Source of the DNA: Pseudomonadota bacterium
GTDB lineage: Bacteria; Desulfobacterota; Desulfobulbia; Desulfobulbales; Desulfocapsaceae
NCBI GenBank assembly: GCA_018821785.1
Contig: JAHJLI010000039.1
Location: 8,878-72,877 of the forward strand
DNA: 64,000 nt
Direction: 5' to 3'
Below the pieces are notes generated by a model. The model was not told where the DNA came from, ran no database searches, and saw only the letters and a program-made list of their open reading frames with translations. The position numbers were made by a program, and so were the translations under genes. Shown piece after piece: positions 3 through 39,120 of this stretch; position 1 is the first letter of the stretch; each line of letters opens with the position of its first letter.

Positions 3-905
3 CCGCTACGAAAGCTGATTTCAGCAGCCCAGAAAATCAAAATCGACGGCACCACACCGGTACGCATCCCCATCAGCGGGACCATAGAAACTAGAGAACT
101 CGGCCAGATCCTCGATCAGATGATAGATTCACTCAGAAATGCCGTCTATGAAAAAGAAAGTCTTCTTACCGCCCTTGGCGAACGGAACCAGGATCTCAAG
201 AATGCCAATCGTCAACTGGAAGAGGAAATCAAGGTCCGGAGAAATGCGGAGGCAATTATTACTTCAGCCCTGAAAGAAAAGGAGGTTCTTCTCCGGGAAG
301 TCCATCATCGGGTAAAAAACAATATGGCGGTGATTATCAGCTTGCTGGGCCTGCAATCGAATTATATCTCCGACGAGCGCGTACGCAATGCCCTGGAAGA
401 CAGCCGAAGCCGCATCAAATCCATGGCTCTGATCCACGAATCCCTGTACCGATCAGAGAGCATAGCGGAGATTTCCCTGAAAGTATACGCTGAAAATCTG
501 GTTCAGAGCCTCATGAAGACTCTCGACGGACTCTGCGGCGCAATCCTCACTTCTATTGAATCCGAAGAAATATTTTTGAGTATCGACCAGGCAGTTCCTT
601 TCGGCCTGGTGCTGAATGAATTAATTACCAACGCATTGAAATATGCTTTCCCTCATGGCCGAAAGGGTCTCATCACAATAAAAGCGCTTGTAAACCAACA
701 GCATGAAATTGTCCTCGAAGTATGCGATAATGGTATTGGATTGCCGCCAAGCCTGGATTATCGACATGCGGACACCTTTGGGATGAAAATCATTTCCCTT
801 CTCGTGGAAAACCAGCTTGAGGGAGGCTGGTCCATGAAAAACGACAACGGCGCCTGTTTCATCATTCATTGGCCACTTTTCTCCAAATCTACCAAAGGAA
901 TGTAA
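3..905 (+). CDS. Sensor histidine kinase, HAMP + HisKA_2 + HATPase (5'-partial, runs off window start)
   Basis: Frame is open from nt 3 (PLRKLISAAQKI...ELGQILDQM, HAMP-like). H-box LLREVHHRVKNN, N-box LVLNELITNALKYAF, G1 DNGIG. Confidence 0.9.
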   Translation, partial: PLRKLISAAQKIKIDGTTPVRIPISGTIETRELGQILDQMIDSLRNAVYEKESLLTALGERNQDLKNANRQLEEEIKVRRNAEAIITSALKEKEVLLREVHHRVKNNMAVIISLLGLQSNYISDERVRNALEDSRSRIKSMALIHESLYRSESIAEISLKVYAENLVQSLMKTLDGLCGAILTSIESEEIFLSIDQAVPFGLVLNELITNALKYAFPHGRKGLITIKALVNQQHEIVLEVCDNGIGLPPSLDYRHADTFGMKIISLLVENQLEGGWSMKNDNGACFIIHWPLFSKSTKGM

Positions 906-906
906 C

Positions 907-1515
907 ATGAAAAAATGGGAGATCATGATTGTTGAAGATGAGGTGTTAATTGCCGCCGAGCTCGCGCAACAGCTCAATTCTCTCGGTTACAACGTCCCGG
1001 TTTCCGTGACCTCAGGAGAGAAGGCATTGGAGAAATTAGCCGAAGTGACACCGGATTTAATCCTTATGGACATCCAACTGAAAGGCGAACTGGATGGGAT
1101 AGAAACCGCAATGCATATCCATGACCACCATAAAATTCCGGTTATCTTCTTAACCGCCTTTGCCGACGACACGTTCCTGCAGAAAGCCAAGACCAGTGAG
1201 CCATTTGGCTATCTCATCAAGCCAATCGACATCCGAGAACTTCACTCGACTATTGAAATGGCCCTCTTCAAGGCCGCAGCGGAAAGGGAAAAAGAGCAAC
1301 TTATCAGGGAACTCCAGGCTGCCCTCGCTGAAAACAAGATCCTTAAAGGATTTATTCCAATCTGTGCCAGTTGTAAAAAAATTCGTGATGATAAAGGTTA
1401 TTGGGAACAGATCGAAAAATATATTCAAGATCATTCCCGAGCGATCTTCAGCCACAGCATCTGTCCGGATTGTATTCAGAAGCTTTATCCGGATCTCAAA
1501 TGGCCAAAATCCTGA
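907..1515 (+). CDS. Response regulator: REC domain + C-terminal Cys/His-rich tail
   Basis: IMIVEDE...LILMDIQL...GYLIKP receiver motifs; tail IPICASCKKIRDDKGYW...SHSICPDC; starts 1 nt after the kinase stop. Confidence 0.9.
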   Translation: MKKWEIMIVEDEVLIAAELAQQLNSLGYNVPVSVTSGEKALEKLAEVTPDLILMDIQLKGELDGIETAMHIHDHHKIPVIFLTAFADDTFLQKAKTSEPFGYLIKPIDIRELHSTIEMALFKAAAEREKEQLIRELQAALAENKILKGFIPICASCKKIRDDKGYWEQIEKYIQDHSRAIFSHSICPDCIQKLYPDLKWPKS

Positions 1516-1583
1516 CAGGGGATTTTCATAAATATGATATTTTCAGCATTTCAATTGACTCCTCATTCTACCTTGGTGATGAT

Positions 1584-2138
1584 ATGAGAAATATCTTGGC
1601 AGTAATCATTTTTGTTTGTGCATTTCTCGTTGTTCCGAAACTCGCGGTATCTGAGCAGATATCACACACAATCCGCTGTGAAAGTGAGGAATTTTCACCA
1701 CGCAATTGTGCACTGCCGGTCGCCCCTCGCAATGCTGAGATTCAGGAAATCAGGAAGGTAAGACAACTTTCCAGCAAACCATGCATTGAAGGAAAATCGT
1801 GGATGGCAAACGAATCAGGCATTACCGTAAGAGATGGCTGTCGAGCTGAGTTTGCTGTTGTCTACCGGACCTCCGACCGTTCCGATCGTCGCGAAAGATG
1901 GCATAACAATTCGGATTCGCGCCACCAGCAAGAAAGATCAGATGATCGATATTCAAATCCTTCACCACGGCACGAAGCAGATCCGACCGAAATAGTTATC
2001 CGTTCGTTTGAAGATATTCTCAACAGGAGGCCTTCGCGAGAAGAAGTGCGATTCTATCGAAATCTCATGATAGATCGCGGCTGGACAGAACGGCAGATTC
2101 GCAATGAACTGCGCAATCGTGGCCGTTCACGCAGGTAA
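1584..2138 (+). CDS. Secreted DUF3011-like domain protein
   Basis: Signal peptide MRNILAVIIFVCAFLVV; CESEEFSPRNC...RQLSSKPCIEGKSW...RDGCRAEF matches the DUF3011 pattern as I recall it. Start moved from 1401 to the ATG at 1584. Confidence 0.65.
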   Translation: MRNILAVIIFVCAFLVVPKLAVSEQISHTIRCESEEFSPRNCALPVAPRNAEIQEIRKVRQLSSKPCIEGKSWMANESGITVRDGCRAEFAVVYRTSDRSDRRERWHNNSDSRHQQERSDDRYSNPSPRHEADPTEIVIRSFEDILNRRPSREEVRFYRNLMIDRGWTERQIRNELRNRGRSRR

Positions 2139-2462
2139 GGCTATTGAGCTGAAAAGCACAAGCCCAGCAACATATCACAGCAGACGACTGGTGGGATGAC
2201 TCCCCACATTTCTATTTTTTTTCCGTTAAGGTGTCCAGTCGCGCAAAAAGATCTGCCAGATAGTTTTCCATACTCATCAGAAGAAGTCTTGCACTGTAGT
2301 TCTCCGGGTTCTTCTCAAAGTTTTCCCGAGACTCAGCCAGTACGACTTGCGCCTTTTCTATCTGTTCCTTCAGGGAGTCAATTTGGCTCATAATTCATGG
2401 CAATTGAAAGTTTACTCAGTGCAGATACATGTCTTTCGCTTCAAATAGTCTTCCCCGTCAAT

Positions 2463-3047
2463 CTATTTGCGTTTCCCAAGCCCCATATGAGGGAACAATG
2501 AACGTTTGGTCAACGGCGGTGGATACGTCTGATTGACATACCGCATATCCTCGATGGTGTAAAACGCATTTGGATTGTATTTTTTGATAATCTCAATGAT
2601 TTTACCAAGATTTTTCCTTTTGGTGATGCTGAAGATAATTTTCACCGGCCCTGTTTCACCCCTTGCATCAACACTTGTCACACCATAACCTTCATTCCAG
2701 AGAACGTTGACGAGTTCGTTTGCTTCCTTTTGGGTAATGATCCTGATCAACAGGTTTCCAAGTGCAATTCTCTCCTCAAGAACTACACCGACATAATTGC
2801 CGGCGCCAAATCCGAGAGCAAAGGCAATATAGGTCTGCCATGAATGAAGGTTCTGGATTACTTGGGTCACCGCGATCAACCAGATAAGAGATTCGAAAAA
2901 ACCAAGCATTGCCGCAAAATGTTTCAACCCTTTGGAGATAAAAATAATCCGCAGGGTACCAATCGATACATCAAGAATACGGGCTAAAAAAACCAGCCCT
3001 GGAAGAATTATATACCCAAAGATCGTGCTATCACTAAGAAATGTCAT
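2463..3047 (-). CDS. UPF0316 / DUF5698-DUF2179 membrane protein
   Basis: FLARILDVSIGTLRIIFI...FALGFGAGNYVG...GYGVTSVDARG. ATG at 3047 overlaps the upstream stop at 3044-3046 (ATGA coupling). Confidence 0.8.
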   Translation of the reverse strand: MTFLSDSTIFGYIILPGLVFLARILDVSIGTLRIIFISKGLKHFAAMLGFFESLIWLIAVTQVIQNLHSWQTYIAFALGFGAGNYVGVVLEERIALGNLLIRIITQKEANELVNVLWNEGYGVTSVDARGETGPVKIIFSITKRKNLGKIIEIIKKYNPNAFYTIEDMRYVNQTYPPPLTKRSLFPHMGLGKRK

Positions 3048-4948
3048 CTCGAACACTCTGCATCCCCTTCCGGGCACCCGTTGCAAAAAGAATGAAACTT
3101 CGGAGTGGACCATGTATTCCCACTTTTATCCGAGATAAAATTATACGACACAAAACGGCAGACACCATCGTTGTCTTTGTCTTTAAAAAGCACTGCCGCA
3201 CTCATTTTTCGATACTCAATTTTTGAATCGGTGTATCGGTTGTATGCCCAATCACCGGCGATAGCCACTTTGTCGATTTCAGAGGCTGATATCTTCGCTT
3301 GCGCCAGGGCCTTTTTAAATTGTTCGTGCAACTGGGCAGCGTCAGTTCCGGAATACATTTCTCGCGGAAACTGCGATCCGGCAGCAATGCGCTCGTCTTT
3401 TTGGACAATAAGGGAGAACTCTCCAATTGATATCGGTTCACGAGAGCGAAGCTGTCCTTGAACACTCCATAATTCAAAACGGACAGAGTGTGTGCCTGGT
3501 GACAAACCTTTTGTTGTCCGAAACCATGCCTCAGCCTCGCTCTTAAAGCCATCATCAGGGGGCAGCGGATGAGGAGCAAACTGCCAGGTTGTCCAGGTTT
3601 CCCCTGCTTGCCCCTTGAGATTACCGTTGCTGAAGACATTAAATCGATCCACCTTTTCTTTGCCGTCGATAAACAACCTGAATTCGTAACCGAAATCCCG
3701 GTTTTCCTGCGGTTCTCCATCACTTCCATAAACCGGAGTGTTACCGAGCGAATGATGGAGATAGAGTCTGCCAAAGATGGGGTCGCTCAATTGAAATGAC
3801 TTTTCAGGGGCAATCTGATCCTGGCCATCTAAACTTATTGGTTGTTTTGACCAGATCATTCGCCCTGCGTTGGCCCGATGCACCTTGCTGGTTGGGGGAA
3901 CGTCAGTATATCTGGCTTTGATCCGTTGCGCTGCAGCATCATTGGCCTCGTTTTGTGTATTTTTCCCCGCCTGGGCAGCAACTCCCGCCTCGCCCTTGAG
4001 CCTGGCTACTGCATCTTGTCCGCTCTCTAGCCTTAATTGCACCTGCTGATAAGCAACGTGACCGGGTTCGAAGCTGCCTGTGTAATTTTTTTGGAATTGT
4101 TCAAATTTATCTTGAGCAAATTGCAGGTCGCTCTTTACTCCCTCCAGATAGCTCCCAGGTTGGGAAGAATTTGCAGCAGTCTCGAGACGATGCTCGAGTA
4201 TATTCAGGGCACCGGCAATGGCGACGAGGTCTGCACCCATTTGCGCAGGCAAATCTTCAACTGCGCCTGAATTGCTCTCGAGAGGGGCCGTCGCGTTTTT
4301 TTGCACAAAGCCTGCAGTCATCGCCTGCTCTGCTGTATCGATTCTTTTTTTGAGAGCGATAATATCAGGGTGATTGGGGTCGAAACTGCCTTTGTAGTAT
4401 TCAAAAATATTTTTATACTCCACTCTGGCCTTGGTGAGGGAACCTTCCGCCCTTTCACCTTTCTCGGCAGCCTGATTTGCAATGACCAGGGCCCTGTCTG
4501 CAGCATCTATCCGACGGCGAATGTTTGCGGAGAGATCATTCTGTTCTTTACCCTGCGCAACTGTGATGCCAGGTGGCGTTTTCTCTTCGGTTTGCAGCTT
4601 TTCTCCCGTCGAAACCGCCGATCCGCTTTGTGGCTTCTGGCTCTTGCCTGATGCCTGTTCTGTGATATTTGCGATGCGATTTTTTAATTTTACCAGAACA
4701 GGATGAGCCGGATCGAAACTTCCACCATAATAGCTGAAGATAGCATCATATTCCTTTTGCGCAGACTTCACTTTAGCCGGTGCTAGTTCCAACTTTCCCG
4801 TCTTTATTTGGTCTTCGGCCTTATCAAGTTCCTGGTTGGCAGCATTCACTTTACGCATGATATTGGCGTTCAGATCTTGTGAAAAAACTGCATTCAGGTT
4901 GAAGAACAAAAGGGTGAAAAACATTGCCAGTACTGAAATAGCTTTCAT
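3044..4948 (-). CDS. Secreted hypothetical protein with three N-terminal helical repeats
   Basis: 634 aa ORF with signal peptide; repeated motif YYGGSFDPAHP / YYKGSFDPNHP / NYTGSFEPGHV; RBS-like AGGAG upstream. Confidence 0.8.
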   Translation of the reverse strand: MKAISVLAMFFTLLFFNLNAVFSQDLNANIMRKVNAANQELDKAEDQIKTGKLELAPAKVKSAQKEYDAIFSYYGGSFDPAHPVLVKLKNRIANITEQASGKSQKPQSGSAVSTGEKLQTEEKTPPGITVAQGKEQNDLSANIRRRIDAADRALVIANQAAEKGERAEGSLTKARVEYKNIFEYYKGSFDPNHPDIIALKKRIDTAEQAMTAGFVQKNATAPLESNSGAVEDLPAQMGADLVAIAGALNILEHRLETAANSSQPGSYLEGVKSDLQFAQDKFEQFQKNYTGSFEPGHVAYQQVQLRLESGQDAVARLKGEAGVAAQAGKNTQNEANDAAAQRIKARYTDVPPTSKVHRANAGRMIWSKQPISLDGQDQIAPEKSFQLSDPIFGRLYLHHSLGNTPVYGSDGEPQENRDFGYEFRLFIDGKEKVDRFNVFSNGNLKGQAGETWTTWQFAPHPLPPDDGFKSEAEAWFRTTKGLSPGTHSVRFELWSVQGQLRSREPISIGEFSLIVQKDERIAAGSQFPREMYSGTDAAQLHEQFKKALAQAKISASEIDKVAIAGDWAYNRYTDSKIEYRKMSAAVLFKDKDNDGVCRFVSYNFISDKSGNTWSTPKFHSFCNGCPEGDAECSR

Positions 4949-34024: not shown

Positions 34025-34447
34025 TTACACTTTCCATGTGCCGATCGCCAAGAATATTGTTCCGGCACAACAAAACATGATGTCTGCCCAATACGAGACA
34101 GGTTCTGTCTCACGAAAATAGATACGGTTGCGCCCCCTCGAAGAAAAACCATTACAGATATCCACATGCGCAATGAGAAGAAATGGAATCGCCATAATGG
34201 TGGTGATAATGCCCAAAATATTTTTTCGGAAAAAGATTGCCAGAACACCATTTATTAAAAGCACCGCCAAAAGTGTCCCGATGATCAAAAGGGCATGACC
34301 TTTAAAGAATTCGCGTCGCCATAATGGGCCACGCATTGGAGGACGTTTCCAAACTGAGAAAGATTTTAAGTAATCACATTCTGTTTGATTATCATTTGTA
34401 CTTGACTCAATTTGCCTTAGTTTTTTTTCTCTCGATTTCTTTCCCAT
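34025..34447 (-). CDS. Hypothetical membrane protein
   Basis: MGKKSREKK start 7 nt after an attC-like site; about three hydrophobic segments. Confidence 0.65.
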   Translation of the reverse strand: MGKKSREKKLRQIESSTNDNQTECDYLKSFSVWKRPPMRGPLWRREFFKGHALLIIGTLLAVLLINGVLAIFFRKNILGIITTIMAIPFLLIAHVDICNGFSSRGRNRIYFRETEPVSYWADIMFCCAGTIFLAIGTWKV

Positions 34448-34453
34448 GATATT

Positions 34454-34500
34454 CTGCAACGGCAAATGCACCAGCTTGACTGGTGCATTTTATTGTTAGT
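34454..34500 (-). other. Short attC-like site
   Basis: Minus strand ACTAAC-AATAAAATGCACCAGTCAAGCTGGTGCATTTGCC-GTTGCAG; perfect stem AAATGCACCAG/CTGGTGCATTT. Confidence 0.5.
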
Positions 34501-34577
34501 AGCGATTTGACAATCGCCGAATGTCCACAATTCAAGCCTGACCCATCGACCCATCATTTTCTCTCTGGCCAGGTGGT

Positions 34578-34622
34578 TTGGTGGTGTGGTAGCCGGGGGA
34601 ATTTCTCCCCCGGCTACCCAAT
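34578..34622 (+). mobile_element. Group IIC intron 3'-end remnant (end of DV + DVI)
   Basis: TTGGTGGTGTGG...GCCGGGGGAATTTCTCCCCCGGCTACCCAAT; near-identical to 36335-36379. Confidence 0.7.
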
Positions 34623-34774
34623 TGGTCTTCCGGCCGTAAGGATTCTGCTTCACAACGCCTTCTTCACGTCGTAACCGCACTCGCGATCGACCGGGTCACA
34701 GAACGCACGACTATCGTCGACGCTTGGCTCACTCACAGGACATCGGTGGTCTCCATCAAAAGCACAGGAGGCAC

Positions 34775-35506
34775 CTACCAGGGCATGCGCTCGCCTTTGT
34801 GACGCAGCTGGCCATGTGGAAATTGCTCGCGGGTGATGGTCACCAGCTCGACGGCCGTGCTCGCGCCCTCGTCGACCTCCATCGGCGCAGCCTGGCTCCC
34901 GAGATCGGTTTTCACCCATCCGGGATGGGCAGCGGCGACCGCTATCCCTTTGCTCGCCAGCGTTTTTGATTGAATCAGTGTGAGCATGTCGAGCCCGGCC
35001 TTCGAGGTCGAGTATCCCACGGCCATGAAGCCCCCGATTTCCTCCCACATGCTCTCGGCGGCACCCATCGAACCGAGCATCGACGACTGGTTGATTACCC
35101 GAGCGTCGTCGCTGCGCGAGAGGAGGGGAACGAGGGCCTCGGTGATCGCGTAGGGTGCGATGAGGTTGACCTCGAGGGTGCGGCGAATCTTGTCAGCATT
35201 GGTCGGCTTTCCGTCCCACTCAAGGGCGATCCCGGCGTTATTCACGAGCACGTCCAGCTTGCCGAAAGTCGTCTCGAGATAGCTCACAAGGCTGGCGATG
35301 TGGTCGGGGTTGGTGACCTCGAGACGAACAGTGTGGGCGTCGCACCCTGCAGCCACGAGTTCCGCCACAGCCGCACCCCCCGCCTGCTCGTCCCTCGCCG
35401 TGATGACCACCGTGTATCCGAGAGCGCCCAGCTGCCGCCCGATCTCCTTGCCCAAGCCCTTGTTCGCTCCCGTGATGAGCACTACCTTGCCGTTCTTCGT
35501 TGCCAT
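34775..35506 (-). CDS. SDR family oxidoreductase (carbonyl reductase-like)
   Basis: TGANKGLG, LDVLVNNAG, YSTSK, HPGWVKTD; AGGAGG RBS; high GC. Confidence 0.9.
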   Translation of the reverse strand: MATKNGKVVLITGANKGLGKEIGRQLGALGYTVVITARDEQAGGAAVAELVAAGCDAHTVRLEVTNPDHIASLVSYLETTFGKLDVLVNNAGIALEWDGKPTNADKIRRTLEVNLIAPYAITEALVPLLSRSDDARVINQSSMLGSMGAAESMWEEIGGFMAVGYSTSKAGLDMLTLIQSKTLASKGIAVAAAHPGWVKTDLGSQAAPMEVDEGASTAVELVTITREQFPHGQLRHKGERMPW

Positions 35507-35609
35507 GCTTACGTCCTCCTTACTGCCGCCTGGTGTGTTCACCCTTTGAGCGCGAAGGCGCGGCTACCCCCACACGGGCAAGGGTGGAATCTGGGCTCAA
35601 CGCCAGTCC

Positions 35610-35680
35610 ACCCAACGACTCCGGTCACTGGTTGCCATGGAGCGAAGCGGAATGGCAATCCGGTGCACTGGTTTTTTAAA
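35610..35680 (-). other. attC-like site (R'' mutated)
   Basis: Minus strand TTTAAAA-AACCAGTGCACCGGATTGCCATTCCGCTTCGCTCCATGGCAACCAGTGACCGGAGTC-GTTGGGT. Confidence 0.65.
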
Positions 35681-35684
35681 CATC

Positions 35685-36149
35685 CTATCGTAAACGTAAC
35701 GAATAGAGGTAGTCCGCTCCGTTATCGGGCTTCTTAGACTGCCTTATCCATCCATACGATTCATATAGACTTATGGCCGCTGTCATATTCCTGTTTGTTG
35801 TCAATACAACCTCTTCATATCCACCCTCAATAGCTGTAAACAGCAAAGTTCTAATTAGCATATGTCCAACTCCCTGCCCCCGAAAACTTGACCTCACATA
35901 GAAGCCGGTCATTTCTGCGACAGAAGAGGGTCTCGGTCTCAGGATGATGGATCCTACAATCTGTTCCTCATCAAACGCGACGAATTCATGAAAAGGGATT
36001 TCTTTCTCTTGACCAAATTTGGCCAAAGCATGATCAATATTCTCAGGGTCTGGTTCTATGCCCAAGGCTCTCATAATTTCAAAGGCAAAAGCCGTCACCT
36101 CTTCATTATCTTCAGGCCTGGCTTTACGAATCTGTATATTGGATTTCAT
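35685..36149 (-). CDS. GNAT family acetyltransferase
   Basis: IRKARPED, FYVRSSFRGQGVGHMLI (motif A), NMTAAISLYESYGW. Confidence 0.88.
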   Translation of the reverse strand: MKSNIQIRKARPEDNEEVTAFAFEIMRALGIEPDPENIDHALAKFGQEKEIPFHEFVAFDEEQIVGSIILRPRPSSVAEMTGFYVRSSFRGQGVGHMLIRTLLFTAIEGGYEEVVLTTNRNMTAAISLYESYGWIRQSKKPDNGADYLYSLRLR

Positions 36150-36239
36150 AGGTTTTTAGCTTGTTAATCACAGATTCATTCGAAGCATTATTATGTTATA
36201 CAATTAAACTGTTACCTCATTGCTTTCGGTATTTTCTGC

Positions 36240-36379
36240 AGTTGTCGCCTTCTTGCTGTCAAAGAGCTGCGGATATACTTCATCCGGCTACGGTCCGATG
36301 TTCTATGGGAACCGCCAAGTGCGGACCCGCTTGCTTGGTGGTGTGGGGGCTGGGGGAGAAAAACCCCCGGCTACCCGAT
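36240..36379 (+). mobile_element. Group IIC intron 3'-end remnant (possible ORF tail + DV + DVI)
   Basis: DV GAACCGCCAAGTGCGGACCCGCTTGCTTGGTGGTGT (36309-36344): stem ACCGCCAAG/CTTGGTGGT, class-C CGC triad. DVI GGGGGCTGGGGGAGAAAAACCCCCGGCT-A-CCCGAT with bulged A and terminal AT. Confidence 0.85.
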
Positions 36380-36414
36380 TGTCTTTTGTCTAACTAAATG
36401 ATATCGAAAACCTT

Positions 36415-37383
36415 TTACTCAACAAGAATTAAATCAATACGGTTTTTGTTGCTGTCTGCTATTGAATGAATCGCTACCCGAATATGTTCGCCTTGCTTAA
36501 AACGAGTAGAAAAATCGCTCACCAGTGTAGACCTGGGAATTATTCCTTCTGTTCCTGTTTGCAGGGAAATAAAAACCCCCTCTTTTGGACTAATCTTTTT
36601 GACAATCCCTTTGGCAATCAGCGCATTCGTTGATGCAGTTATAATTGAACGCTTTGGAAAATGAGAGTCGGTCCCCTGCCTAGTCGAAATTACCGGCGCT
36701 GTTTTTGATGATAATGCTCGATCATCTTCTTTCTCTATGAGGCGATAAGTTTCTTTGTTATTGCTATGGTTAAATGCTTGGAACAGTCCTTTGGCAGCAT
36801 TTTGATAAGGTAAATATGCCTCTTGATGGGTCAACACAGTAAACCATATAATTCCATGACCTGTAACAATTAGCCAAAAAACTAATTGACAGGGAAGTTT
36901 TTGTATTTTGTGCCGAAAAAAAATCTGCGCAAGCAATGCGCCAGGCCAACCGCCTAATGTCTCCAAAAGGTGCAATCTTTTTTCAGGAGTTCGTTGTAGC
37001 CCTGCTTGAGCTGCGCGCTTATCTAAACTATATACCCAAATTGTCAGCAAACTCATGGCGGCATAAATTGAGAGGAGATGAAAAGGAAGAATTCGTTGAA
37101 AGACCAAGCACACATAAATTACAAAGAACAGGGAAAGACAAAGCCAGATGAAGGTAAAATATGACCATGCCAGGCCTTTGATTTTAGGGGAGGATGCGTA
37201 TAACCGTTTTTTCTCATCCACCTTGTCTTCATATGTCAACACGTCACCATTTTTTGGTCGACGTTGGTAATGAGGTAATGATTTGACATGGAAAAAAGCA
37301 TCCTTCGTCCCATTAGTTGGACAAATAAATCCGTATCCCTTGTCATCATCCCAACGTGTAAGGGTGCCTTGTTTTCGCTCCAT
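36415..37383 (-). CDS. Cold-shock domain + DUF1294 + C-terminal S1-like domain protein
   Basis: GTLTRWDDDKGYGFI...AFFHVKSL; YSLDKRAAQ...RTPEKRLHLLETLGGWPGALLAQIFFRHK; C-terminal GIVKKI...GVFISL..GTEGIIPRSTL...FKQGEHIRVAI...RIDL. Confidence 0.8.
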   Translation of the reverse strand: MERKQGTLTRWDDDKGYGFICPTNGTKDAFFHVKSLPHYQRRPKNGDVLTYEDKVDEKKRLYASSPKIKGLAWSYFTFIWLCLSLFFVIYVCLVFQRILPFHLLSIYAAMSLLTIWVYSLDKRAAQAGLQRTPEKRLHLLETLGGWPGALLAQIFFRHKIQKLPCQLVFWLIVTGHGIIWFTVLTHQEAYLPYQNAAKGLFQAFNHSNNKETYRLIEKEDDRALSSKTAPVISTRQGTDSHFPKRSIITASTNALIAKGIVKKISPKEGVFISLQTGTEGIIPRSTLVSDFSTRFKQGEHIRVAIHSIADSNKNRIDLILVE

Positions 37384-37416
37384 ACACTCCGTTCCTCGTT
37401 TGTCTTTTTACGGTAA

Positions 37417-37480
37417 AAGCAACGCGCTGCTCACCGGACCCGCGTCGTTTGCAGTGTCCGCGGGGAGCAGGAGGTTAAAT
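37417..37480 (-). other. attC-like site
   Basis: Minus strand ATTTAAC-CTCCTGCTCCCCGCGGACACTGCAAACGACGCGGGTCCGGTGAGCAGCGC-GTTGCTT; the TAA in R'' is the stop of the upstream frame. Confidence 0.7.
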
Positions 37481-38044: not shown

Positions 38045-38096
38045 ATGCTTTTCTCTTTTATGCAGTTATCAATCAGTGCATTTAACAAGTACTACG

Positions 38097-38135
38097 GGAT
38101 ACATTTTTAGAAGGGCTGGAAAAAGAAAAAGCCGG
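38097..38135. repeat. Direct repeat A flanking higBA
   Basis: GGATACATTTTTAGAAGGGCTGGAAAAAGAAAAAGCCGG; same as 38848-38887 except one T in the homopolymer. Confidence 0.92.
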
Positions 38136-38166: not shown

Positions 38167-38463
38167 TCAATGAAGAGCTTGGGCAAGAAAAGGTTTGATG
38201 TTTAGTTCGTGTTTGTGTTGCTCTACTTGCCAGAGATCATAGGCAACCTGGTGGCCCATCCAACTTTCCGGGCTTCCACCAAAGGCGATGGACAAACGAA
38301 ACGCCATTTCCGGTGAAATGCCGGAATTGCCGTTTACGATTTTCGACAGAGTTTTACGGCTGACGCCAAGAGCAAGCGCGGCTTTAGTGACAGACAGGCC
38401 CATGGGGTTAAGCCATAGCCCACTGAGAATTTCTCCTGGATGGGGAGGGTTGTGCATTCTCAT
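38167..38463 (-). CDS. higA: HigA antitoxin (XRE HTH)
   Basis: [11 protein letters not shown]...[36 protein letters not shown]...Q..YDLWQ. Confidence 0.92.
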
Positions 38464-38471
38464 AATCTCAC

Positions 38472-38750
38472 CTAATGATAATCTTCATAATCAACAACTT
38501 CAGCATCTCCGTTCTCAAACCGGAAAGTCACCCGCCAATTTGCCTGCACGGTTACAGACCAGGTCTTTTTTCTTCCGCCCTTCAATTCGTGGAGGGCAAG
38601 AGTCGGGATTTGCATATCTTCAACTGTTCTGGCTTGATTAAGTTGGGCCAGGATAAGCCGCAACCGCTCGGCATGTTTTGCTTGGATTCCCGCCATGCTC
38701 CCGGTAAGGAAGAATTTTTTCAATCCTTTATGCGTAAAACTCCTTATCAT
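38472..38750 (-). CDS. higB: HigB toxin (RelE/ParE fold)
   Basis: [14 protein letters not shown]...[38 protein letters not shown]; toxin-first order. Confidence 0.92.
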
Positions 38751-38800: not shown

Positions 38801-38847
38801 TTTTTGCTGGATTTGGTAGAGAAGGACGAGACAGCGTGCAGAGTACA

Positions 38848-38887
38848 GGATACATTTTTTAGAAGGGCTGGAAAAAGAAAAAGCCGG
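38848..38887. repeat. Direct repeat B flanking higBA
   Basis: GGATACATTTTTTAGAAGGGCTGGAAAAAGAAAAAGCCGG; overlaps the tRNA-Pro terminator tail. Confidence 0.92.
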
Positions 38888-38919: not shown

Positions 38920-38997
38920 TGGTCGGGGCGGAGTGATTCGAACACTCGACCTCCTGCTCCCAAGGCAGGCGCGCTAACCAGGCTGCGCTACGCCCCG
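38920..38997 (-). tRNA. tRNA-Pro (TGG)
   Basis: CGGGGCGTAGCGCAGCCTGGTTAGCGCG-CCTGC-CTTGGGA-GCAGG...GTTCGAATC...CGCCCCG-ACCA. Confidence 0.97.
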
Positions 38998-39005
38998 ACT
39001 ATATT

Positions 39006-39036
39006 GAAAAAGGCTCGATTTTGGGAAATCGAGCCT
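39006..39036 (-). terminator. Hairpin + T-tract between the two tRNAs
   Basis: 11 bp stem AGGCTCGATTT/AAATCGAGCCT followed by TTTTT on the minus strand. Confidence 0.55.
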
Positions 39037-39044
39037 CTGAATTC

Positions 39045-39120
<76 letters not shown>

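Follow-up and report, generated by a model that had tools for sequence, protein, structure and literature searches.

Two probable group IIC-attC intron remnants in an integron-type cassette array of a Desulfocapsaceae contig

A 64,000-nucleotide stretch of the Desulfocapsaceae assembly GCA_018821785.1 (contig JAHJLI010000039.1, positions 8,878 to 72,877 of the forward strand; this whole stretch is referred to as the window) carries, on its plus strand and opposite to a row of cassette genes, two short sequences that resemble the 3′ ends of group II introns. An initial annotation of the window had placed both in gaps where attC recombination sites are expected. Here, we find that the two sequences, stub 1 and stub 2, are very probably dead, 5′-truncated remnants of group IIC-attC introns that retro-inserted independently into attC sites already in place. 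Both belong to one intron family, and the insertion point of stub 2 coincides to the base with the canonical target of such introns when the window is compared with a related cassette that retains its attC. The two remnants are delimited as follows:

36219-36379, plus strand: stub 2, the 3′-terminal ~160 nt of an intron without an open reading frame (ORF), of probable group IIC-attC type and antisense to the cassette genes; it comprises the end of domain IV (DIV) with a remnant of C-terminal reverse transcriptase (RT) codons, a complete domain V (DV, 36311-36342) and a complete domain VI (DVI, 36344-36377) with bulged A36373, and its 3′ end reads ...CCCGAT
34565-34622, plus strand: stub 1, the 3′-terminal ~58 nt of a member of the same intron family; it comprises the DV 3′ strand followed by DVI and ends CCCAAT

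Two intron 3′ ends at cassette borders

Stub 2 is matched over 36310-36379 (plus strand) by RF00029 (Intron_gpII, DV+DVI), the Rfam model to which the initial annotation had pointed, across the full model (positions 1-77) and with 41.7 bits against a gathering score of 40 bits when 106 nt are searched. A whole-window Rfam scan at gathering thresholds returned two tRNAs only, and a 2.4-kb scan at E ≤ 10 likewise contained no intron match, because speed filters dropped RF00029 in both. DV harbors the catalytic CGC triad at 36313-36315, with a G36314·T36339 wobble, a 2-nt bulge (36331-36332) and a 3-bp upper helix, and in DVI both the fold and the family alignment leave the branch-point A36373 bulged, 7 nt before the end ...CCCGAT. 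The structure is therefore as first described for 36309-36379. Its extent is not: blastn homology to complete introns runs from ~36219-36223 to 36380, which extends stub 2 from 71 to ~160 nt, and the added part holds an eight-codon trace of the C-terminal end of the RT gene (ILHPATVR vs IHYPATAR in L027; loci fetched from other genomes are given L numbers). A covariance model built from 26 3′ ends of the intron family described below scores stub 2 with 97.7 bits (E = 7e-19) and stub 1 with 35.1 bits (E = 1e-5); beyond the two stubs nothing in the 64-kb window exceeds 10 bits.

Stub 1, which forms with the end of stub 2 a 56-nt direct repeat of 75% identity (34569-34624 vs 36326-36381), is ~80% identical to family members by blastn. 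It retains the DV 3′ strand (TTGGTGGTG) and DVI, but only these: no DV hairpin with a triad and a bulge is left, and DVI is a perfect 12-bp hairpin (34588-34618) in which the branch-point A is paired and nothing bulges. RF00029 does not match stub 1. The partial DV plus DVI ending CCCAAT that had been reported at 34578-34622 is upheld by the family model, as 34565-34622, with the correction that its DVI lacks the branch-point bulge. A very degenerate DV 5′ strand may extend stub 1 back to 34538. Judged by its sequence, stub 1 is the older and more diverged of the two.

Three changes, GGGGGCT to GGTAGCC, convert the DVI of stub 1 into this perfect hairpin and remove the bulged A; the identical three changes are found in an unrelated stub of locus L047 (oriented 4392-4432). 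Perfect DVI hairpins are what quasi-palindrome correction would be expected to yield once the branch point has become dispensable. We also considered whether stub 1 is a member of sRNA-Xcc1 (RF02221), an integron-cassette RNA antisense to the cassette promoter Pc (bioRxiv 10.1101/2025.06.18.660453) and the best Rfam match of this stub. The match (34591-34623) reaches 20.5 bits, far under the gathering score of 53, and the overlap is confined to an outer stem, GCCGGGGG/CCCCCGGC, and an ACCC tail; we reject membership, while a distant kinship between sRNA-Xcc1 and the intron DVI is conceivable.

No domains I-IV precede DV in either stub, and both are therefore fragments and not introns. The RT ORF and intron 5′ end that the initial annotation had failed to see are indeed missing from the window: the Rfam models RF02001 and RF01998 (D1-D4) have no match in it, five intron 5′ parts find nothing by blastn, and three family RTs yield nothing below E = 0.03 by tblastn. 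An integrase is likewise absent, with no Phage_integrase domain in the 30 ORFs scanned and no tblastn match of IntI1 to the window below E = 3.

The position of stub 2 can be read from a relative that lacks the intron. Locus L058 carries the CSD-DUF1294-S1 cassette (87% nucleotide identity), and downstream of the CSD gene it reads ...GTTAAACATAAGACA|ACAAGCAAATGCACCGGATAAACCGGTGATCTTCAAGTTATCT, an attC that is short but intact (R″ AGACAAC, R′ GTTATCT); in the window, ...GTTAGACAAAAGACA| is continued by the reverse complement of the intron end. Read on the bottom strand, L058 has the empty site GCTTGT|TGTCTT. This is the consensus TTGT/T, published as the IIC-attC target inside R″ on the attC bottom strand (PMC7923331, PMC3001079), and stub 2 ends exactly at the bar; on this comparison it occupies the canonical target, antisense to the cassette. 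L058 thus has an intact attC at the very place where the window was suspected to have lost one. The initial annotation had also judged the bases after the stubs, TGTCT and TGGTC, to fit TRRRY only loosely; stub 2 lies at the exact TTGT/T site, and the site of stub 1 does fit only loosely. For stub 1, the counterpart is the SDR cassette of L054, whose 3′ untranslated region (UTR) aligns end to end with that of the window save a ~52-nt internal deletion in the window copy; both stop at GACCA|A, an R″-like half-site, and TGGTC is the 3′ exon of stub 1. The 117 nt that separate stub 1 from the SDR stop find no counterpart in L048-L053 and are accounted for by L054. Cassettes of the kinds found in the window, which the initial annotation had advised looking for, do occur elsewhere with an intact attC (CSD in L058, SDR between two classic attC sites in L050, and the GNAT attC in L062), and the family model finds no intron end in the contigs that carry these relatives.

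The region from ~34.6 to 37.5 kb is, from the borders of its gene relatives, a genuine integron-type cassette array on the minus strand, in the order 81-aa ORF, CSD-DUF1294-S1, GNAT, SDR and 148-aa ORF. In the absence of intI from the window it is, as far as the window shows, a cluster of attC sites lacking an integron integrase (CALIN). Its features, other than the stubs, are the following:

37417-37480, minus strand: attC of the preceding 81-aa-ORF cassette, with R″ ATTTAAC, R′ GTTGCTT and an imperfect hairpin between them (from the fold; homology border at 37422)
36415-37383, minus strand: CSD-DUF1294-S1 gene (Pfam CSD, DUF1294 and S1); the cassette starts G|TT at 37421-37423
36380-36414, minus strand: 3′ UTR of the CSD cassette, ending in the left half of R″ (top strand ...AAGACA|); it is the 3′ exon of stub 2 (TGTCT, plus strand)
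36171-36218, no strand: AT-rich ~50 nt linking the 5′ break of stub 2 to the GNAT cassette, without a hairpin (fold ΔG -1.8)
35685-36149, minus strand: GNAT acetyltransferase gene (Pfam)
35610-35677, minus strand: intact GNAT attC, with R″ AAAAAAC, R′ GTTGGGT and two extra-helical bottom-strand bases (from the fold; conserved in L062)
34623-35615, minus strand: G+C-rich SDR cassette, comprising a 5′ UTR, the SDR gene (34775-35506; Pfam adh_short) and a 3′ UTR ending GACCA|
34472-34564, no strand: interval from stub 1 to the 148-aa ORF (34025-34471), with two small hairpins; a terminator-like hairpin spans 34464-34490 (plus strand)

It is the homology of CSD, GNAT and SDR relatives, ending at G|TT borders, that identifies these genes as cassettes. 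The CSD relatives L058 and L059 begin to align exactly at 37422, the TT of the GTT box that closes the attC-like hairpin 37417-37480. The GNAT relatives L062-L064, which sit in arrays together with HigBA and BrnTA cassettes, align from 36158-36164 to 35613, the GTT of the R′ box GTTGGGT, and the SDR relative L054 aligns over 35616-34656, starting at the G|TT border shared with the GNAT cassette. The hairpins 35610-35677 and 37417-37480 both fold with bottom-strand bulges; the GNAT cassette, which the AT-rich ~50 nt set apart from stub 2, has an R′ box of its own that looks mutated. Measured from the stop codons, stub 2 lies 35 nt past the CSD gene and stub 1 lies 152 nt past the SDR gene, both on the plus strand, in agreement with the 35 and about 150 nt given before. 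A custom attC finder (R″/R′ motifs plus a minimum-free-energy pairing rule) called no credible site in 29.5-39.5 kb; since its pairing rule was too strict, we relied on folds and cassette relatives instead. A third repeat copy, proposed by a repeat search at 37384-37457, is no intron end, for it lacks any Rfam or family-model match; it represents the attC that belongs to the preceding cassette. A search for exact copies of the window's CSD protein returned zero contigs.

An intron family with attC-like targets

To place the stubs among their relatives, we scanned 185,579 species genomes with the pattern TGGTGGTGTGG-N14-30-CCGGCTACCC. The scan returned 47 stretches, where a hand estimate of the chance expectation is ~5, and 39 of the 47 are true DV-DVI ends, which excludes chance. 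These ends derive from Desulfobulbales, Planctomycetota, the PVC group and marine Gammaproteobacteria, and all except one of the 39 finish in GAT. In the 26 members used for the family model DV shows covariation and the bulged A is invariant. Complete introns, which the initial annotation had proposed as parents to be sought by BLASTn, do exist elsewhere: stub 2 is 95% identical to L040 2237-2395 (159 nt) and 92% identical to L028. The introns closest to stub 2 (in L040, L028, L030 and L007) consist of D1-D4, DV and DVI without an RT gene and measure 713-834 nt; full-length copies encoding an RT with a YADD motif are found in L020, L027 and L041. When all 47 fetched loci are compared with the window by blastn, synteny is confined to the stub.

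Twenty-seven family 3′ ends, both window stubs included, can be classified as complete (12) or 5′-truncated (15, at 45-1033 nt), a count that is biased in that the search pattern targeted 3′ ends. Among the 15 truncated copies, nine measure just 45-75 nt. Most bacterial intron copies are truncated (PMC4424553).

Affiliation with the IIC-attC lineage is indicated by the ends of the RNA, the target sites and the best protein matches. Complete relatives begin GTACGCC directly after imperfect attC-like hairpins, which carry an RYYYAAC-like box at their start and (T/G)(T/G)GT at the end of the 5′ exon; the 3′ exon consensus over the 39 ends (T37 A21 G22 G28 C29) is TRRRY. Among the top plasmid matches of the L027 RT is an ltrA-annotated intron of a class 1 integron, where it is flanked by blaIMP-4 and qacEdelta1 and runs antisense to the cassette; over its full length the L027 RT is 48-50% identical to the RT of this intron. 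The blaIMP-4-associated intron (L056), known from IncN pIMP plasmids of Klebsiella and taken here to be Kl.pn.I3, opens with GTACGCCC directly behind ...GAATTGT, and its 3′ end reads ...GGTGGTGTGGGGGCTGG...CCGGCTACCCGAT|T; the family model assigns it 93.6 bits, and its start and end are like those of L020, L027, L040 and L041. The top plasmid matches of the L027 RT further include introns of class 1 integrons and of Shewanella and Vibrio plasmids (48-51% identity over 94-99% of the length), and the single best is a 61.8% match on an unannotated Candidatus Methylocalor plasmid. Since RNA ends and target site fit known members, both stubs can, on these two features and on the best hits, be assigned to the group IIC-attC lineage. 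The parents are thus associated with attC sites and not with terminators, the alternative that the initial annotation had left standing along with introns of another class.

Several further observations concern the family itself. Copies without an ORF, ~455-834 nt long, include L040 1682-2394, L028 3989-4713, L030 966-1712 and 3734-4460, L007 4267-5100, L032 3185-3720 and copies in L008, L034 and L044; among the fetched family ends they outnumber the RT-encoding copies of L020, L027 and L041, in a sample that the search pattern biases. A review rates bacterial group II introns without an ORF as rare (PMC4424553). In L040 a second intron 5′ part (2395-2700) starts directly after the GAT end of the first intron, lacking its first G and a DV and DVI of its own; this head-to-tail order could reflect template switching by the RT or insertion behind the DVI hairpin. 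Copies at L007 4267-4365 and L012 4348-4434 have ~15-26-nt insertions within DV that should abolish ribozyme activity. On a Planctomycetaceae contig, ~2.5 kb away from an intron stub, L031 3479-3543 (minus strand) matches the type II hammerhead ribozyme (RF02276, 53.7 bits). The loop of the GNAT attC in the window (35634-35662, …CCATGGAGCGAAGCGGAATGGCAA…) is 93% identical over 29 nt to L041 2302-2330, an extra hairpin in domain I of that full-length intron that is found in no other fetched locus. RF00029 matches of 41-46 bits to members of the family (stub 2, L040, L027 and others) are lost to the default filters once the scanned sequence reaches a few kb; an Rfam scan of eight loci reported L030 only, although L056, L057 and 11 of the 26 family-model loci carry the same element.

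Origin of the stubs

In the reading that we favor, an intron ribonucleoprotein would have recognized the folded bottom strand of an attC on two separate occasions and reverse spliced at TTGT/T in the R″ box, which closely follows the stop codon of the cassette gene, with DNA copying beginning at the intron 3′ end; such a route would account for the precision of the 3′ junctions (GAT|T, AAT|T) as well as for the antisense orientation. The source of stub 2 would have been an ORF-less, nonautonomous derivative of ~715 nt that needed an RT in trans. The intron 5′ part and the rest of the attC (L″, loop, L′ and R′) may have been lost at insertion, through abortive cDNA (complementary DNA) synthesis and imprecise rejoining, or by later deletion, and the CSD cassette, now without an attC, would thereby have become fused to GNAT and the SDR cassette to the next gene. 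With the attC lost, an integrase should no longer be able to excise the CSD or SDR cassettes singly, and without a ribozyme core the stubs cannot splice or move.

Both stubs combine an exact 3′ junction with an arbitrary 5′ end-point, and target-primed reverse transcription that stops early would give just such constant 3′ and variable 5′ ends. That they differ in length, in divergence (95% vs ~80% identity to relatives) and in 3′ exon argues for independent events, and the occurrence of the same cassettes elsewhere with their own attC and without an intron argues that the cassettes predate the introns. Of the two origins first proposed, independent retro-insertion that destroyed attC sites therefore gains support, most directly from the empty site in L058, whereas scars of intron-assisted cassette assembly do not.

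Several observations weigh against the favored reading. The parent intron, its RT and an integron integrase are all absent from the 64-kb window. Folds of the sequences 5′ of the stubs (36171-36218 and 34472-34564) reveal no recognizable attC remainder, so that abortive insertion alone is insufficient and an extra deletion must be assumed; the GNAT relatives, at 77% identity, diverge too far to trace the ~50 nt that separate the GNAT cassette from stub 2. At stub 1 the half-site GACCA|A is only R″-like, L054 has GACCAAG in place of the GACCAAC expected of an R″ box, and no relative with an intact, alignable attC was found for this stub. For the clade assignment, RNA ends, target sites and best hits stand in for an RT phylogeny. 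Finally, no public contig alignable to the window covers either junction of stub 2, and because the intron 3′ end is 200-3400× deep where its flanks are 5-9×, a chimeric join across the 160-nt repeat is possible.

Such a metagenome-assembly chimera, in which the CSD side and the GNAT side of stub 2 come from two loci joined through the high-copy 160-nt repeat, appears unlikely to us. The depths just given, measured in run X1, speak for it, as does the finding that no contig in any indexed run spans either stub 2 junction. Yet each junction would be real even then, one side recording a CSD attC invaded at TTGT/T and the other a truncated copy beside GNAT; the neighbors on both sides are cassettes of the same array in matching orientation, and stub 1, in this array, is spanned together with both of its junctions by an independent 542-nt Logan contig of run X1 without differences. 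Run X1, a biofilm metagenome from which the window probably derives, contains pieces of the window at 5-9× depth with zero differences. A much weaker case can be made for assembly scars in the sense of the Leon-Roy model, where introns join a gene to an attC by homologous recombination and their 3′ ends are left behind. This model is published (as cited in PMC3001079 and PMC7923331), and the stubs do sit exactly between a gene and the expected place of an attC; however, the CSD, GNAT and SDR cassettes occur elsewhere with their own G|TT borders and attC and no intron sequence, insertion took place in the R″ box of an attC already present and not at the terminator of a noncassette gene, and the model, as those citing papers describe it, ends in splicing and leaves no intron remnant. 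We consider it very improbable.

More credible, if still short of probable, is a clean insertion of a complete intron (ORF-less or RT-encoding) into each attC with later deletion of the intron 5′ part and the attC remainder, a variant of the favored reading that differs only in the timing of truncation. One deletion across intron and attC would leave no attC remainder 5′ of either stub, as is seen, and it was perhaps selected, for a whole antisense intron blocks read-through to downstream cassettes; S.ma.I2 reportedly hampers transcription from Pc (PMC3001079). Against this, the clustering of nine of the 15 truncated copies at 45-75 nt fits early cDNA arrest at the stable DV/DVI hairpins better than random end-points, and a search keyed on 3′ ends provides no fair count of 3′-truncated copies to set beside the 15 that are 5′-truncated. 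Compatible with an intron origin, though improbable as it stands, is co-option of the G+C-rich DV/DVI hairpins as mRNA 3′ stabilizers, as blocks to antisense transcription or as an sRNA-Xcc1-like small RNA. Very short stubs (DVI with or without DV) are overrepresented in the same nine of 15 copies, both strands of the stubs fold strongly (z-scores of -2.3 to -4.6), stub 1 and L047 share the three changes that perfect the DVI hairpin, and sRNA-Xcc1 is the best Rfam match of stub 1. That match is far under threshold, however, and replication-time correction of quasi-palindromes yields perfect hairpins without selection. A terminator function is rejected, as no T-run follows the hairpins on the mRNA strand and a terminator scan does not call them.

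Exact 31-mers of the intron part (36239-36380) occur in runs X1-X38, among them metagenomes of permafrost, soil, marine and freshwater sediment, wastewater, plants and the plastisphere, together with one marine-sediment metatranscriptome.

Known systems and neighboring features

The stubs are instances of a known phenomenon and not a new kind of element; truncated copies in cassette arrays that are similar but longer are on record (PMC7923331). With S.ma.I2 and the blaIMP-4 intron they share a near-identical DV-DVI, the TTGT/T target in R″ on the bottom strand and the antisense orientation to cassettes (PMC3001079, PMC7923331). They differ from both in measuring only ~160 and ~58 nt, in lacking domains I-IV and an intron-encoded protein, and in that the rest of the attC is gone; their host array, moreover, is chromosomal and environmental with no integrase nearby. 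UHB.F1 (IIC-attC) and H.ha.F1/F2 (IIB) are likewise 5′-truncated copies that keep DV, DVI and an exact 3′ end, and likewise lie antisense within cassette arrays or CALINs that also hold toxin-antitoxin cassettes (PMC7923331); those elements still hold most or part of the RT gene, whereas the stubs are much smaller and an ORF-less intron gave rise to stub 2. Trans-mobilized ORF-less introns (Simon et al. 2008, as far as they are described in PMC4424553) resemble the 713-834-nt introns of L040, L028, L030 and L007 in having no RT gene. ORF-less introns, rare according to that review (PMC4424553), outnumber RT-encoding copies in the IIC-attC subfamily as sampled here, with the bias stated above.

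Fused cassettes with a lost attC (PMC4670013) present the same outcome, two cassettes welded by partial or whole loss of the attC, but in the window this loss is linked to the insertion of an intron at R″, and part of that intron persists at the junction. The exact, constant 3′ end and variable 5′ end-points also recall the "dead on arrival" copies of non-LTR (long terminal repeat) elements such as LINEs (long interspersed nuclear elements), which are another element class in another domain of hosts; for the introns behind the stubs the truncation mechanism is one that we infer.

The window provides a base-exact case of an attC-targeting intron disabling an integron recombination site, with a direct before-and-after comparison for one cassette. 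It also documents remnants as short as 58 nt, which standard Rfam scans of whole contigs miss; annotation tools may consequently report such junctions as a "missing attC" or as multigene cassettes. We tentatively suggest, as an idea that may well prove too broad, that an environmental IIC-attC subfamily is dominated by high-copy ORF-less mini-introns (~0.5-0.8 kb) and 45-160-nt DV/DVI stubs, and that repeated 5′-truncated insertion at R″ is a general route of attC erosion that welds cassettes and fixes arrays as chromosomal genes. If so, this erosion would be largely invisible in annotations, because default Rfam scans miss the stubs. The excess of ORF-less copies and tiny stubs and their extreme abundance in sediment and biofilm metagenomes would, if upheld, contrast with the view of ORF-less introns as rare.

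Finally, we note several features of the cassettes and their surroundings. The SDR protein (243 aa) is 84-97% identical across contigs L048-L055, which are attributed to phyla as different as those of Lentisphaerae, Latescibacteria and Anaerolineales. In L048 and L049 SDR heads an SDR-ADH-dienelactone hydrolase operon located next to transposases, and on the P0009 contig an SDR relative adjoins an integrase, as judged from gene order. Within the SDR cassette of the window, 34625-34760 (minus strand) holds the first half of a small ORF (VDDSRAFCDPVDRECGYDVKK...) that is complete (50 aa) in L054. A HigB/HigA toxin-antitoxin pair (higBA, 38167-38750, minus strand) is flanked by a 32-nt exact direct repeat (38104-38135 and 38856-38887) that extends as a ~44-nt near-exact repeat to ~38094-38135 and 38843-38887 and includes the T-run half of the terminator of an adjacent tRNA pair (38923-39120, minus strand). 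higBA thus looks like a small insertion with a duplicated target beside the tRNA genes.

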